A stretch of DNA of 64,000 nt from Escherichia phage vB_EcoM_JNE01 (OR670491), one strand, 5' to 3'; counted from the stretch's first letter, positions 20,525-24,179 are shown. Notes: a model not told the origin generated them from the letters alone. A program made the numbers and translations.

Positions 20525-20934
20525 ATCAATGCTACGAAATTAATGTAACAAAACCTGAAACAAGCACTTTGGAAGCGTTGGAAGACACATTAACAGTACT
20601 ACAATCTCCTGACAAAGAAACATCATTAGTAACCATTGAATACAAGGATTGTACGGTTGATGCTGGGAAACATCCAGAGTGGAAAGCACACCAATATTAC
20701 TCAATATACATTCGCTATGAAAATTTCATAACTGATATGGCCTACGCAGAGGACTATCTGTTACTGGAGAATCATTTTGTATTCAAACAAAAAGAATACA
20801 TGTATTGTACTCCTGAATATCTCGAAGAAGAAGAATTTCAGTATTCTTTGGTGCAGGATGAAGTTGAGTACAACAAAGTATTAGTACTGTCAAAAATACA
20901 TAAAATACTAAAGGATAAATATGTCACACAGTGA
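20506..20934 (+). CDS. EE-x-FFQxS-motif family protein
   Basis: 142 aa; EEEEFQYSLVQDE. Confidence 0.55.
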   Translation: MDDTKMNQCYEINVTKPETSTLEALEDTLTVLQSPDKETSLVTIEYKDCTVDAGKHPEWKAHQYYSIYIRYENFITDMAYAEDYLLLENHFVFKQKEYMYCTPEYLEEEEFQYSLVQDEVEYNKVLVLSKIHKILKDKYVTQ

Positions 20935-21091
20935 ATGGATGTACTTTATGAAACAAAAATATGCACCGCCTTTAAACGAAAGTATTAGCTACATTCACTG
21001 GAATGTAATCAAAAACCCTTCGTTATATAAACGATATTTCGTAGAACCAAATACTGGTTGGTTTTTAATGGAACTTATTTTTAGGGATTAA
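20921..21091 (+). CDS. MTHEEW-family micro-protein (56 aa)
   Basis: MSHSEWMYF...; below track size cutoff. Confidence 0.4.
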   Translation: MSHSEWMYFMKQKYAPPLNESISYIHWNVIKNPSLYKRYFVEPNTGWFLMELIFRD

Positions 21092-21093
21092 TC

Positions 21094-21255
21094 ATGACAC
21101 ATGAAATTTGGTTAAACTTAATGGCACACGATTTAAAACGAAGTATTAAACACTGGGATCTATATCTGATGATGACTATCAATTCACCTGTGTACTATAA
21201 ATCTGTACTAGATGCTTCGGCCCTTACTTTCATTGCAATTTCTATGAGTAGATAA
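21094..21255 (+). CDS. MTHEEW-family micro-protein (53 aa)
   Basis: MTHEIWLNL... Confidence 0.4.
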   Translation: MTHEIWLNLMAHDLKRSIKHWDLYLMMTINSPVYYKSVLDASALTFIAISMSR

Positions 21256-21256
21256 T

Positions 21257-21421
21257 ATGTCATACGATGAATGGTTTGGTATGTGTCTCAAGAGATATTA
21301 CGGAGACATATACTATTTTGAGAATTTCATTTATAATTGTTTACGAAATAAAGATGAATACTATTCTAATATAGTTGTAAATGACGATTTCAGTACTTAC
21401 ATAGGTATATGTTTATCATGA
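21257..21421 (+). CDS. MTHEEW-family micro-protein (54 aa)
   Basis: MSYDEWFGM... Confidence 0.4.
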   Translation: MSYDEWFGMCLKRYYGDIYYFENFIYNCLRNKDEYYSNIVVNDDFSTYIGICLS

Positions 21422-21429
21422 GGTAACTA

Positions 21430-21615
21430 ATGACATATCAAGACTGGATTGAACGAATGGACAGAATCTTTGCCAATGACGTTTTTTATTTCAGAACAGG
21501 GGGTCTGGATAAAAGCATCAAAGACGATACTCTGTTTACCAGATGTATCATTGACTATCTGGATTGTTATGGTACAATGTATGGTATTGCCCGTACTACG
21601 GATAAAGATGAATGA
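21430..21615 (+). CDS. MTHEEW-family micro-protein (61 aa)
   Basis: MTYQDWIERM...; in ORF track. Confidence 0.45.
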   Translation: MTYQDWIERMDRIFANDVFYFRTGGLDKSIKDDTLFTRCIIDYLDCYGTMYGIARTTDKDE

Positions 21616-21785
21616 CACATAAAGAATGGTTGGTACAAACTAAACACTCGGTTATACCAGGTATGAAATTTTGGAATGAACAGTTGATGCACTTCGTAAG
21701 TAATAAAGTGTATTACGATGCATTCTTTGGAAAACATGCTACAATTGAGGTTCATGTGTATTATGCTATTGCATTTAGTGATTAA
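21612..21785 (+). CDS. MTHEEW-family micro-protein (57 aa)
   Basis: MTHKEWLVQ...; ATGA overlap with previous. Confidence 0.4.
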   Translation: MTHKEWLVQTKHSVIPGMKFWNEQLMHFVSNKVYYDAFFGKHATIEVHVYYAIAFSD

Positions 21786-21788
21786 TTT

Positions 21789-21953
21789 ATGAAATATGAC
21801 CATTTAAAATACTATGCTGATAGAATAAATTATTATCCCTTTTATATAAGAAGCTTAGATGCATTAATATCAAAAAAAGTTGTATATAAACGATCTCAAG
21901 CTGATCTAACCAATATAGCATTCATTCTTGCAGTACTGTCTAAAATGGGATAA
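21789..21953 (+). CDS. small hypothetical protein (54 aa), same array
   Basis: MKYDHLKYY... Confidence 0.3.
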   Translation: MKYDHLKYYADRINYYPFYIRSLDALISKKVVYKRSQADLTNIAFILAVLSKMG

Positions 21954-21978
21954 TGTTAAATTAGGATGAATACAAAAT

Positions 21979-22170
21979 ATGACACATGAACAATGGATGA
22001 AACAATTCAGTGAGGATTATAAAGCTGCCATATCCTTTTATGGAAAAAGATTCAACTATCTTTTTTGTAGTGAATATCATTATAGAAATATAGTTCTTTA
22101 TGAACAAACAGAAGGTGAAAAAGCTGCCGACCATTGGGTTGTAATGTACATCCTTGCTATGTCAAAATAA
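21979..22170 (+). CDS. MTHEEW-family micro-protein (63 aa)
   Basis: MTHEQWMKQF...; in ORF track. Confidence 0.45.
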   Translation: MTHEQWMKQFSEDYKAAISFYGKRFNYLFCSEYHYRNIVLYEQTEGEKAADHWVVMYILAMSK

Positions 22171-22195
22171 CACAAAAAATATTTTAATAAATATA

Positions 22196-22223
22196 TAGAC
22201 AATAGCGTTATATGAGATATAAT
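22196..22223 (+). promoter_or_regulatory. sigma70-type promoter upstream of tRNA-Leu
   Basis: TAGACA, 16-nt spacer, TATAAT (22218-22223). Confidence 0.5.
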
Positions 22224-22281
22224 GTTTGTCGTGAAGGAGAAAAGCATGATCGATGAATTCGACGGCTTTTAAATAATACAT

Positions 22282-22366
22282 GCACTTGTGGTGGAATCGG
22301 TATACACAACGGATTTAAAATCCGTCGCTTTATTGCTTGTGAGTTCAAGTCTCACCAAGTGCACCA
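22282..22366 (+). tRNA. tRNA-Leu (anticodon TAA), type II
   Basis: Acceptor GCACTTG/CAAGTGC; anticodon arm ACGGA-TTTAAAA-TCCGT; 13-nt variable arm; T-arm GTGAG-TTCAAGT-CTCAC; discriminator A; CCA encoded. Confidence 0.8.
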
Positions 22367-22849: not shown

Positions 22850-22881
22850 TACTGATAAATATTAATGAAAGGTATAGAGAA

Positions 22882-23079
22882 ATGACTAAATCCGAACTTC
22901 TGGCTTTATTAGAAAATTATCCAGATGATGCATGTATTGAAGTAGTTCACACTGCACAACATTTTGACATTGAAGATGTTGTACGATACAATGACAAAGG
23001 TGTGATGATTATGGAACTATGTATCGGTGCTTTGAAAACTGTGCCAGAATCAACTAAACGAAAATCCCAAAAGGAATAA
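22882..23079 (+). CDS. hypothetical protein
   Basis: 65-aa ORF. Confidence 0.45.
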   Translation: MTKSELLALLENYPDDACIEVVHTAQHFDIEDVVRYNDKGVMIMELCIGALKTVPESTKRKSQKE

Positions 23080-23085
23080 AATATT

Positions 23086-23319
23086 ATGGAAACTAATACA
23101 ATTTTAGATGTAGTAAACAGTGTTAATACTGGTGACTTTGTTCACATTCTTTTATCCAACATCCGCGTTAAGGGTATTGTTGAAAGTGTTGATTCTGAAG
23201 TTCTAACTATTGTTGAAGTTGATCCATACGACAATAATAAATCAGTTCGTCTGTGCATTGATGTTTCCAAAATTGTAGCACTCGGTACAGAAATTATTAC
23301 TGAAGAAACTAATCTATAA
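23086..23319 (+). CDS. hypothetical protein
   Basis: 77-aa ORF. Confidence 0.45.
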   Translation: METNTILDVVNSVNTGDFVHILLSNIRVKGIVESVDSEVLTIVEVDPYDNNKSVRLCIDVSKIVALGTEIITEETNL

Positions 23320-23330
23320 AACGACAATAA

Positions 23331-23406
23331 GCGGTAATCGTATAAAGGATATTACCTCGGTTTTCCAAACCGATGATGTGGGTTCGATGTCCCACTTACC
23401 GCTCCA
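23331..23406 (+). tRNA. tRNA-Gly (anticodon TCC)
   Basis: Acceptor GCGGTAA/TTACCGC; anticodon loop TTTCCAA; close resemblance to E. coli tRNA-Gly(UCC) but with one extra nt in the T-loop (TTCGATGT). Confidence 0.75.
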
Positions 23407-23460
23407 ACTTAAGAGGATTTAATATGTTTAAAGATGAACGTCCAGATTTGTAAATAATCA

Positions 23461-23489
23461 TTGACTAAATAATCCAGTACTGATAAAAT
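23461..23489 (+). promoter_or_regulatory. promoter with CAGTACTG spacer motif, upstream of tRNA-Ser
   Basis: TTGACT, 17-nt spacer containing CAGTACTG, TAAAAT. Confidence 0.5.
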
Positions 23490-23495
23490 AAATTT

Positions 23496-23582
23496 AGTGA
23501 AGTGGCAGAGTGGTTTAATGCAACGGTCTTGAAAATCGTCGAGGGTGAAAGTCCTCCGTGAGTTCGAATCTCACCTTCACTG
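23496..23582 (+). tRNA. tRNA-Ser (anticodon TGA), type II
   Basis: Acceptor AGTGAAG/CTTCACT; anticodon arm ACGGT-CTTGAAA-ATCGT; long variable arm; T-arm GTGAG-TTCGAAT-CTCAC. Confidence 0.75.
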
Positions 23583-23589
23583 TCAATAT

Positions 23590-23671
23590 CCGGGTGTATC
23601 TCAACGGTCTTCTAAACCGTCGTTAATCGAGTAACTGGAGTATGCAGGTTCGAGTCCTGTCACCTGGGCCA
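23590..23671 (+). tRNA. tRNA-Arg(TCT)-like, non-canonical (no normal D-arm, 23-nt extra region)
   Basis: Acceptor CCGGGTG/CACCTGG; perfect anticodon arm ACGGT-CTTCTAA-ACCGT; T-arm GCAGG-TTCGAGT-CCTGT; CCA encoded; D region cannot be folded canonically. Confidence 0.4.
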
Positions 23672-23692
23672 ATTTTAATTTAAGGTGTATCC

Positions 23693-23857
23693 ATGACGCA
23701 TGAAGAATGGATGAATGATATTAATTTTAGATATTCGGGTATCGGTAGTTGGCGAAAATATCATTGGGAAATTATATCAGACCCAGCAGAATACGATAAA
23801 CTTATAAACCATGAAGTATATCCGTGGTTCTTTATTGAAATAATGGTACGAATATGA
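23693..23857 (+). CDS. MTHEEW-family micro-protein (54 aa)
   Basis: MTHEEWMNDINFRYSG...; first of three tandem copies. Confidence 0.45.
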   Translation: MTHEEWMNDINFRYSGIGSWRKYHWEIISDPAEYDKLINHEVYPWFFIEIMVRI

Positions 23858-24018
23858 CGCATGAAGAATGGATGAATGACATTAATTTTAGATATTCGGG
23901 TTTCGGTAAATGGCTAAAGTATCATTGGGAATTTATTACTGATCCTCAAATGTACGATAAACTTATAAATGATCAAGCATATGAAATTTACTTATTTGAA
24001 ATACTGGTCAGAACATGA
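23854..24018 (+). CDS. MTHEEW-family micro-protein (54 aa)
   Basis: Near-identical N-terminus to previous; ATGA overlap. Confidence 0.45.
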   Translation: MTHEEWMNDINFRYSGFGKWLKYHWEFITDPQMYDKLINDQAYEIYLFEILVRT

Positions 24019-24179
24019 CGCATGAAGAATGGATGAGAAAACAAAAGCTAACATGGAATCCTTATTGTTACCAGTTAGACCCAAGAATGTGGGATGTGAT
24101 ACGTATTAAATGTATGTACAAATCATTTCTTGGTGATATAATGGATGTTGAAGTACTGATGAATTTAGTACATCGATAA
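24015..24179 (+). CDS. MTHEEW-family micro-protein (54 aa)
   Basis: MTHEEWMRKQKL...; ATGA overlap. Confidence 0.45.
   Translation: MTHEEWMRKQKLTWNPYCYQLDPRMWDVIRIKCMYKSFLGDIMDVEVLMNLVHR

Follow-up and report, generated by a model that had tools for sequence, protein, structure and literature searches.

Two tandem micro-gene arrays in the tRNA region of an Asteriusvirus jumbo coliphage appear to encode an old, lineage-restricted family of small proteins with a possible role in host interaction

Why does a jumbo coliphage carry, among its tRNA genes, chains of very small open reading frames (ORFs) that begin in nearly the same way, and are these genes, recent duplicates or non-coding repeats? 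The window, i.e., the whole stretch of 64,000 nucleotides analysed here, comes from an Asteriusvirus jumbo coliphage with 98% identity to phage Turkey5. As originally predicted, about ten ORFs of 53-63 aa lie on the same strand, tightly packed or overlapping by ATGA, in two clusters (A, copies 1-7; B, copies 8-10), both flanked by tRNA genes. The features are as follows, with E-values from PHROG matches and from leave-one-out HMMs, each copy being tested against a profile of the remaining nine.

20506-20934, + strand: ORF of 142 aa (phrog_33143), always preceding cluster A and overlapping its first gene
20921-21091, + strand: copy 1, 56 aa (MSHSEWM...), with an AAGGA Shine-Dalgarno sequence; phrog_10970 E=3e-12, leave-one-out E=1e-7
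21094-21255, + strand: copy 2, 53 aa (MTHEIWL...); leave-one-out E=6e-8, BLASTP to copy 5 E=5e-5
21257-21421, + strand: copy 3, 54 aa (MSYDEWF...), divergent sub-lineage; phrog_31562 E=1.7e-11, leave-one-out E=0.024
21430-21615, + strand: copy 4, 61 aa (MTYQDWI...), divergent sub-lineage; phrog_31562 E=0.041, leave-one-out E=0.13
21612-21785, + strand: copy 5, 57 aa (MTHKEWL...), ATGA overlap with copy 4; leave-one-out E=1.5e-7
21789-21953, + strand: copy 6, 54 aa (MKYDHLKYY...), without the W motif; leave-one-out E=0.2, no PHROG match
21979-22170, + strand: copy 7, 63 aa (MTHEQWM...), closing cluster A just ahead of tRNA-Leu(taa); leave-one-out E=3e-6
23461-23489, + strand: strong sigma70-like promoter cassette (TTGACT-N17-TGATAAAAT) upstream of tRNA-Ser, the tRNA-like gene and copies 8-10
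23495-23668, + strand: tRNA-Ser(tga) and a second tRNA-like gene (23590-23668)
23693-23857, + strand: copy 8, 54 aa, 24 nt past the tRNA-like gene, with an AAGG Shine-Dalgarno sequence; phrog_10970 E=2e-27
23854-24018, + strand: copy 9, 54 aa, ATGA overlap with copy 8, to which it is 69% identical
24015-24179, + strand: copy 10, 54 aa, ATGA overlap with copy 9; phrog_10970 E=4e-19

Neighbouring genes are separated by 2, 1, 8, -4, 3, and 25 nt in cluster A and by -4 and -4 nt in cluster B, and copy 1 starts with a 14-nt overlap with the 142-aa ORF, an arrangement likewise found in 121Q, PBECO4, phAPEC6, JP4, and others. The two clusters form polycistronic blocks in which overlapping starts have weak Shine-Dalgarno sequences, and such packing, with ATGA overlaps or gaps of 1-8 nt, makes coupled translation of the micro-genes probable. 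The pattern M[TSK][HY]..W is matched by 9 of the 723 ORFs of the window, every match lying inside the array; furthermore, the conserved 5' DNA motif ATGACRCATGAAGAATGG occurs 8 times where 0.2 matches would be expected. A+T-biased codon usage might by itself account for the conservation of this motif at synonymous sites. The shared N-terminal motif that had been predicted holds for nine copies, copy 6 being the exception. Similarly, the last three ORFs do have 54 aa each and ATGA overlaps, but the roughly 20 identical N-terminal residues ascribed to them amount to 16 in copies 8 and 9 and, in copy 10, to MTHEEWM only (7 aa; as DNA, copies 8-10 agree over their first 22 nt). The ORFs may be absent from the ORF track, as was also stated for most of them, but all save copy 6 are annotated as "hypothetical protein" in Turkey5.

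Regarding family membership, leave-one-out HMMs recovered copies 1, 2, 5, 7, 8, 9, and 10 (E <= 3e-6), while copies 3, 4, and 6 scored little better than the best ORF outside the family. N-terminal motif, length, and position are features that copies 3 and 4 have in common with the other copies; orthologues of copy 3 in PBECO4-type phages begin with MQPKTFDEW, and those of copy 4 occur in phage A4 and in locus L013. Copy 6 resembles the others only in its size, its place in the array, and the pattern of its C-terminus, and appears to be a marginal member. The proteins already have entries in PHROGs (10970/31562), where they go by "hypothetical protein", with relatives' copies annotated in 121Q, PBECO4, phAPEC6, and others. 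These entries, clustered from 121Q/PBECO4-type genomes, contain the same proteins (phrog_10970 matches copies 1, 8, 9, and 10 over their full length, with E-values from 3e-12 to 2e-27); however, they split the family into two groups, match copies 4, 5, and 7 only weakly (E 0.04-0.2), miss copies 2 and 6, for which the PHROG search gave no match, and record no function, array structure, or paralogy. Searches of Pfam, NCBIfam, and the PDB with the family proteins gave no match, nor did fold comparison. The family is narrow, accounting for 20 clusters among 5.8e9 proteins and for 19 representatives among 1.84e9 proteins, and, as far as these sequence searches reach, is found only in 121Q-like (Asteriusvirus) jumbo coliphages, where it is old, with at least 10 sub-lineages.

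AlphaFold2 models, of low to moderate confidence, are all-alpha for copy 8 (four helices, pLDDT 67.7) and copy 5 (pLDDT 77.4), with a helix beginning at residue 3 in both. We infer that the N-terminal T/S-x-x-E followed by W would form a helix N-capping box and a core tryptophan. The GRAVY index is negative in 9/10 copies, the pI ranges from 4.2 to 9.7 across copies, and a C-terminal hydrophobic segment of ~10 residues is conserved in pattern. The explanation towards which we lean, at slightly better than even confidence, is that the ten ORFs encode small, soluble, all-helical proteins rich in aromatic residues, members of a family restricted to the Asteriusvirus (121Q/PBECO4-like) lineage of jumbo coliphages; this grading covers the explanation as a whole, including recombination, early expression, and host interaction.

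The clusters directly adjoin tRNA genes in every locus examined, even though the neighbouring tRNA is not the same one from phage to phage (Leu, Arg, Gly, Ser). The promoter cassette (TTGACTAAATARTYCAGTACTGATAWAAT) occurs in four near-identical copies within 23.4-28.2 kb against 0 expected. No terminator was predicted inside the arrays; the three terminator-like sites in 19-26 kb lie neither beside promoter cassettes nor between micro-genes, and tRNA-Ser and the tRNA-like gene are probably co-transcribed with cluster B. The Turkey5 record also places a 119-nt tRNA-Leu inside copy 6, an annotation we rejected, given that ARAGORN and Rfam (E <= 1) were blank at 21789-21953 and the RNA fold gave z = -0.9. 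Other, unrelated ORFan families also occupy the tRNA region, and a Pfam search of the neighbouring ORFs found no significant domain, with no sign of an associated HTH regulator.

Constant adjacency to tRNA genes, together with the position of cluster B just past the tRNA-like gene and downstream of the tRNA-Ser promoter, could indicate that the proteins serve the phage tRNA/translation module, in tRNA maturation or, as a complement to the phage tRNAs, in the inhibition of host nucleases that cleave tRNAs (anticodon-nuclease type defences). We consider this unlikely, since the proteins resemble no RNA-binding or nuclease-inhibitor family and their pI values reveal no consistent basic, RNA-binding character, and since this is a plastic region shared with other ORFan families, in which the linkage may be incidental.

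Are the ORFs translated into proteins that selection maintains? Over 20 related loci keep every frame intact; the seven cluster-A frames are intact in 12/12 window-like loci and all ten in six of these, five contigs stopping short of cluster B. Between orthologues, dN/dS for copies 8-10 against eight other genomes was 0.09-0.28 (copy 8, 0.09-0.15; copy 9, 0.17-0.28; copy 10, 0.13-0.23) and the pooled value for cluster A was 0.11-0.26, while codon position 3 held 27/44 segregating sites (p=1.3e-4). A deletion in copy 6 of 121Q removes 3 nt and leaves the frame unchanged. Conserved frames, low dN/dS, and third-position bias together argue that these are genes and not non-coding repeats; on this comparative evidence the ORFs are protein-coding genes under purifying selection, in agreement with the original prediction of coding micro-genes. 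Some disruptions were also seen: copy 8 is disrupted in locus L014, the copy 5 orthologue of 121Q is split into 20 + 33 aa, and CMSTMSU has truncated copies. Those in 121Q and CMSTMSU (the latter flagged UNVERIFIED) could be sequencing errors.

Losses of this kind, in 121Q copy 5 and CMSTMSU, would be expected if the ORFs were dispensable, nearly neutral ORFan filler tolerated at low cost in a freely recombining region; copy number is highly variable, PBECO4, JP4, A4, and UE-S1 each have one cluster-B copy fewer, and no function can be assigned. Nevertheless, the dN/dS values and third-position excess denote selection on protein sequence, the frames stay intact, and the sub-lineages have been kept even between phages that are saturated with changes at the DNA level, all of which leaves this reading improbable.

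Small size and the conserved C-terminal hydrophobic segment could likewise suit virion components (e.g., small proteins from inside the head that are injected along with the DNA) or small membrane peptides acting in superinfection exclusion or lysis timing. This seems very unlikely: the segment is too short for a membrane span, none of the ten copies has a transmembrane-length hydrophobic stretch, the GRAVY values are mostly negative, and the genes lie in a promoter-rich ORFan/tRNA region and not among structural genes; in addition, the paper on phAPEC6 virion mass spectrometry does not name gp094-096 or gp100 in its main text, a point of little weight.

How the arrays are reshuffled is suggested by their mosaic identity to divergent relatives, among them L011, a metagenomic one.

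21765-22002, + strand: mosaic island around copy 6, 97% identical to L011, with unalignable flanks and edges on conserved gene ends

In identity profiles and alignments the block edges are sharp, falling at the ATG of copy 5, within the 5' motif of copy 7, and at the last codons of copy 5; boundaries between divergent phages coincide exactly with the 5' motif or with conserved 3' codons. Other patches of 93-97% identity lie nearby, e.g., 24595-25259 in the comparison with 121Q, identity to 121Q rising from 82% to 97% at 24595, within the cassette at 24572-24600 (in this one comparison only), and 121Q carries extra DNA flanked by promoter-cassette copies. Such boundaries, three or four of them from two comparisons, point to cassette exchange by homologous recombination as the process that would reshuffle the arrays, in line with the recombination hotspot that had been suggested. 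Under this model, recombination between short conserved gene ends would remodel the arrays, unequal crossover adding or removing 161-nt units precisely and in frame and exchange between co-infecting phages swapping whole gene cassettes.

That the DNA or RNA itself matters (recombination or regulatory element, structured RNA), the ORFs being incidental, is the least probable reading and is largely refuted, since despite the identical first 22 nt of copies 8-10, the 97-100% conservation of the copy-6 island as DNA between divergent phages, and the tRNA-Leu of the Turkey5 record, the copies beyond the 5' motif are unalignable as DNA but alignable as protein, substitutions favour codon position 3, the arrays contain no tRNA or Rfam family, copy 6 folds no better as RNA than shuffled sequence, and recent exchange of a mosaic patch, of which there are others nearby, is the simpler explanation of the island.

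T4-type phages show comparable plasticity in hyperplastic regions that carry PeSL promoter cassettes (Arbiol et al., 2010, PMC2839356; Comeau et al., 2014, PMC4122927). These regions are likewise full of small ORFs, repeat a strong sigma70-like promoter cassette (present four times in the window), and have modules that related phages shuffle, the breakpoints lying on short conserved sequences. In contrast to those regions, the present phage is not a T4-type virus, its shuffled ORFs are mutually homologous and chained without individual promoters, and its promoter cassette lacks a stem-loop terminator and does not flank each micro-gene, and the substrate of micro-gene recombination would be a conserved coding end and not a promoter/terminator cassette.

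Copy number, in which variation among related phages was looked for, indeed ranges from 5 to 12 (5-10 per phage in isolates and 12 in L011), with 2-7 copies in cluster A and 2 or 3 in cluster B. The original prediction also suggested recent duplication under selection, for example for dosage or for diversification against a host target. Recent duplication is not supported. Paralogues are 7-30% identical, except copies 8/9 (69% at the amino acid level), and synonymous sites between them are saturated, again with the exception of copies 8/9 (dS 0.54, against >1 for copy 10 vs. 8 or 9); only this pair is moderately recent, and it is itself common to many phages. As for diversification, omega values of 0.09-0.28 between orthologues give no sign of positive or diversifying selection. 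Selection for dosage and action on a host target are speculative. Purifying selection in orthologues is not the classic signature of arms-race genes.

The poxvirus K3L gene accordion, in which a host-antagonist gene is amplified under acute selection, as Elde et al. reportedly described in 2012, resembles the arrays in its head-to-tail tandem copies, whose number differs between related viruses, and in unequal recombination as the likely mechanism; however, accordion copies are recent and nearly identical, whereas the phage copies are old, individually conserved, and under purifying selection. A recent accordion amplification was considered and rejected here, the tandem copies not being near-identical although their number differs.

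What, then, might a conserved and shuffled family of micro-proteins do? SPO1 gp37-60 and the early small proteins of T7 and T4 are early host-takeover modules, and the arrays share with them the clustering of very small proteins behind host-type promoters in a lytic phage; such modules consist mostly of unrelated proteins, while the arrays would hold one paralogous family. In the related Rak2-like phage CBB, a region of short ORFs, rich in RpoD promoters, has been read as early/host-takeover genes (PMC5259590). By analogy, host RNA polymerase would express the micro-genes early from the repeated strong sigma70-like promoters of the region, on transcripts partly shared with tRNAs; we found no Asteriusvirus transcriptome, ribosome profiling, or proteome in the literature. 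Our best guess is that of early-expressed host-interaction proteins. More specifically, genomic context and analogy tentatively suggest a repertoire of small binders of host proteins, for host takeover or counter-defence, a proposal we hold to be possible at less than even confidence, in which a conserved helical core would carry variable surfaces, as the spread of pI values may indicate. Searches against characterised proteins and defence/anti-defence families revealed no homology for the array proteins, and no sequence or fold similarity to characterised members of known defence/anti-defence systems, apart from one isolated weak PADLOC match (PDC-M34B, E=0.01, 1/21 members).

A bolder and rather improbable extension of the host-binder proposal is that the arrays constitute a cassette bank of interchangeable micro-protein inhibitors, each directed at a different host defence or factor, with the conserved 18-22 nt at the 5' end and the last codons serving as built-in recombination handles. 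Because of the constant linkage to tRNA genes, the possible targets may include tRNA-targeting nucleases. If true, co-infecting jumbo phages would swap, gain, or lose single inhibitor genes in frame and with precision, and the arrays would be a phage counterpart of the cassette logic of integrons and antigenic variation, without a dedicated recombinase.

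The ten micro-ORFs represent a real, lineage-specific micro-protein family, a conclusion that is well supported; the family is already catalogued but functionally uncharacterised, and its array is old, divergent and recombination-prone. All ten ORFs were found at the positions originally predicted:

Micro-ORF array of the window
20921-22170, plus strand, cluster A (copies 1-7): seven ORFs of 53-63 aa, with gaps of 2, 1, 8, -4, 3 and 25 nt
23693-24179, plus strand, cluster B (copies 8-10): three ORFs, each exactly 54 aa, joined by ATGA overlaps

Copy 1 overlaps by 14 nt the stop region of an upstream 142-aa ORF, and the whole array region belongs to the genome's tRNA cluster, where ARAGORN placed six of the eight tRNA genes of the window at 22.2-25.5 kb. 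This 4.1-kb region was 98.2% identical, over its full length, to Escherichia phage Turkey5, and was matched in patches by further jumbo coliphages of Asteriusvirus, of about 350 kb, among them 121Q, PBECO4 and phAPEC6. Most of the ORFs had been described as missing from the ORF track; nine of the ten (all except copy 6) are listed as hypothetical proteins in Turkey5, and the other genomes likewise carry annotations for the relatives' copies.

The shared N-terminus was confirmed as M-[TS]-[HY]-x-x-W in nine copies, but copy 6 (21789) begins with MKYDHLKYY and lacks the motif. Among 723 window ORFs of at least 25 aa, this pattern was restricted to array ORFs, and the DNA motif ATGACRCATGAAGAATGG occurred eight times against 0.2 expected. 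A candidate eleventh copy at 15797-15973, the only motif match outside the array, was rejected as a chance match, since it is an out-of-frame ORF within a 185-aa gene. The roughly 20 identical N-terminal residues proposed for the last three copies were reduced to 16 aa in copies 8 and 9, with which copy 10 shares 22 identical nucleotides (7 aa). From general structural knowledge, the conserved [TS]2-x-x-[EDQ]5-W6 is predicted to be a helix N-capping box followed by a core tryptophan; the proteins are rich in aromatics (11-26% F+W+Y), mostly hydrophilic, and range in pI from 4.2 to 9.7.

The array proteins are members of PHROG 10970 and 31562, both without assigned function. Leave-one-out profiles recovered copies 1, 2, 5, 7, 8, 9 and 10 at E <= 3e-6, and were marginal for copies 3 (E 0.024), 4 (E 0.13) and 6 (E 0.2); the N-terminal motif is present in copies 3 and 4, which are placed in the sister PHROG, and copy 6 is the weakest family member. 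Clustering of 72 distinct sequences from all loci yielded at least ten sub-lineages, and orthologues in other phages were recognisable for most window copies. The distribution of the family is extremely narrow, being limited to one genus of therapeutic-candidate coliphages: the 35 phage records in which tblastn detected it were all Asteriusvirus-like phages of Escherichia or Salmonella. Among 5.8e9 clusters, a word-indexed search retrieved 20 proteins; among 1.84e9 representatives, searched exhaustively with a HMMER profile, there were 19, of 43-71 aa and the same type with one exception, a spurious eukaryotic repeat protein that was rejected as a family member.

Evidence for coding was consistent, and the paralogues are under purifying selection. 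Copies 8-10, compared with orthologues from eight other genomes, showed dN/dS of 0.09-0.28 at dS of up to about 1.5, with no frame disruption, and pooled dN/dS for cluster A was 0.11-0.26 against Turkey5 and four metagenomic relatives. Moreover, all seven cluster A ORFs were intact in twelve window-like loci, in which codon position 3 held 27 of 44 segregating sites (binomial p = 1.3e-4); copy 6 had zero segregating sites there, but these loci were chosen by exact copy-6 protein identity, which introduces ascertainment bias, and this low diversity was given no weight. Alignment, dN/dS and position-3 bias thus agree that the repeats are conserved as genes and not at the DNA level only, the outcome that would have spoken for a non-coding repeat. 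As DNA repeats, the copies were not detectable, apart from the conserved DNA at family gene starts (5' motif) and the pair of copies 8 and 9.

Some copies are disrupted in relatives, which may reflect genuine pseudogenes or errors in sequencing: the copy-5 orthologue of 121Q is split into 20 and 33 aa (L002 4424-4597), CMSTMSU, whose record is flagged UNVERIFIED, has truncated family copies (L005 4322-4438 and 6337-6486), and a metagenomic contig carries a shifted copy 8 (L014 4906-5231). In the GenBank record of Turkey5, a 119-nt 'tRNA-Leu' is annotated inside copy 6 (L001 4331-4449, about 21830-21948 of the window); this is probably an annotation artefact, a tRNA there being without support from ARAGORN and Rfam. 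The idea that copy 6 encodes a tRNA or a structured RNA was rejected.

As anticipated, copy number varied among related phages, from 5 to 12:

Family copies per phage or contig
12 copies: metagenomic contig L011 (ERZ14189038 NODE_170, 286-4379), the largest array seen
10 copies: window and Turkey5
9 ORFs: 121Q, including two halves of one split copy and one weak match (E 0.002)
7 copies: phAPEC6
6 copies each: PBECO4, JP4 and ELP-22
5 copies each: A4, BF17, UE-S1 and CMSTMSU

In L011, a more divergent relative, seven copies form a head-to-tail chain, another four come after a 165-aa ORF and one lies behind a tRNA-Leu(taa). Cluster B has three or two copies depending on the phage, and the missing member differs: the copy-8 type is retained by PBECO4, A4 and UE-S1, and the copy-9 type by JP4 and ELP-22. 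Recent duplication, as first suggested, was not borne out, since pairwise identity among the ten copies is 7-30%, except for copies 8 and 9 (69%); likewise, a recent gene accordion (tandem gene amplification, by comparison with poxviruses) was rejected because the array is old and divergent.

A strong sigma70-like cassette, TTGACTAAATARTYCAGTACTGATAWAAT, with a consensus-like -35, an extended -10 and an internal palindrome (CAGTACTG), has four near-identical occurrences against 0 expected, three of which precede tRNA genes or a 123-aa ORF:

Promoter cassettes TTGACTAAATARTYCAGTACTGATAWAAT
23461-23489, plus strand
24572-24600, plus strand
25126-25154, plus strand
28106-28134, plus strand

The cassette at 23461 is followed by tRNA-Ser(tga), a second tRNA-like gene and copies 8-10, with no terminator predicted between them, and three larger ORFs lie between a terminator at 19544 and cluster A. 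Where a start codon overlaps or adjoins the stop of the preceding gene, the Shine-Dalgarno sequence is weak, which fits translational coupling. In the related phage CBB, RpoD-type promoters concentrate in a short-ORF region interpreted as early genes (PMC5259590); by analogy, early transcription by host RNA polymerase may be expected. The second tRNA-like gene, at 23590-23668 (plus strand), was called as a tRNA by Rfam (33.3 bits, above the gathering threshold), and ARAGORN reports none; its sequence is almost that of 121Q gene 124, annotated as tRNA-Leu(taa). In the window gene, the D-arm region is unusually short, and the anticodon stem-loop was read as ACGGT-CTTCTAA-ACCGT, giving anticodon TCT (Arg).

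Against 121Q, identity was 68-82% over most of the region, with blocks of 93.5% at 21612-21996 and 96.6% at 24595-25259; against L011, it was 71-89% or unalignable, except for 97% at 21765-22002. This copy-6 island (21765-22002) is 97-100% identical to L011 and 94-98% to 121Q, its neighbouring family genes being unalignable. Recent exchange of a cassette is the best explanation of the island, with some slight probability left for a function at the DNA level. Elsewhere, IMG/VR gave the island in 121Q only, and JGI metagenomes gave none. In the alignments, the left edge of a block is either the exact ATG of copy 5 or a point in its last conserved codons, and both right edges fall within the conserved 5' motif that opens copy 7; a separate junction at 24595 falls inside the promoter cassette at 24572-24600, where identity to 121Q rises from 82% to 97%. 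Mosaic identity and block edges on conserved gene ends thus point to a recombination-prone region, the other option of the original prediction. From a small sample of boundaries, we infer that short conserved sequences, above all the family 5' end, may act as recombination substrates, which would explain precise gain and loss of units as well as the swapping of cassettes from phage to phage; precise swaps of this kind seem to be favoured by the way the array is built.

T4-type hyperplastic regions, in which modular shuffling is mediated by repeated promoter cassettes (PMC2839356, PMC4122927), are closest in behaviour to this locus, and the identity jump inside the cassette at 24572-24600 recalls their PeSL-mediated shuffling. 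In contrast, the shuffled units of the array are paralogues chained without promoters of their own, with gene ends as junctions.

The ORFs beside the array matched only unknown-function PHROGs in Pfam, PHROG and PDB searches. In six of 121-167 aa, an invariant Phe sits within a common C-terminal motif (EEDEFQKST[VI]-like), and a 26-nt DNA repeat occurs at 19860 and 25019:

Flanking ORFs sharing the C-terminal motif
19584-19970, plus strand
20021-20524, plus strand
20506-20934, plus strand
22433-22849, plus strand
24210-24575, plus strand
24758-25129, plus strand

They may form a second paralogous family that has diverged very strongly; BLASTP did not link them, and each falls in a separate unknown-function PHROG. 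Several further paralogue groups in the window, small and either tandem or dispersed, emerged from all-against-all BLASTP, so tandem gene families appear to be a general genome feature and the micro-ORF array not unique:

Other paralogue groups
8746-10461, plus strand
10462-10908 with 29829-32807, plus strand
48670-49812, plus strand
53181-55972, plus strand
56796-58178, plus strand

Furthermore, a 565-aa ORF on the minus strand (25440-27137) interrupts the otherwise all-plus tRNA region. It was also found in UE-S1 (L010 7477-9174) and window-like metagenomic contigs (e.g., L015), was absent at the equivalent position in 121Q, PBECO4 and phAPEC6, and looks like an inserted gene.

Regarding function, no link of the family to a known activity was found in these searches: Pfam, NCBIfam and PDB-sequence profiles gave no match, and PADLOC gave one isolated weak match (PDC-M34B, E=0.01). 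In the literature, we found no paper naming the motif MTHEEW or the family, and no Asteriusvirus transcriptome or infected-cell proteome. Our tentative reading is that the proteins might be early small binders that act on host proteins in takeover or counter-defence, their core being conserved and their surfaces variable. The leading alternative, a role in the tRNA module (e.g., against tRNA-cleaving defences), is rather improbable, constant linkage to tRNA genes being its sole pointer. Less likely are neutral filler, a DNA- or RNA-level function, and a virion or membrane role.

Jumbo phages carry hundreds of genes without known function, among which small proteins are the least explored, and this family offers a clean, compact case, in which purifying selection acts on at least ten divergent paralogues. 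It is of use in annotation and supplies targets for small-protein or anti-defence screens, and would not surprise a phage genomicist. If the small binders are indeed inhibitors of host factors or defences, each paralogue would be a possible new tool or host-range determinant; if not, the locus still shows that conserved gene ends can drive the modular evolution of phage plastic regions.
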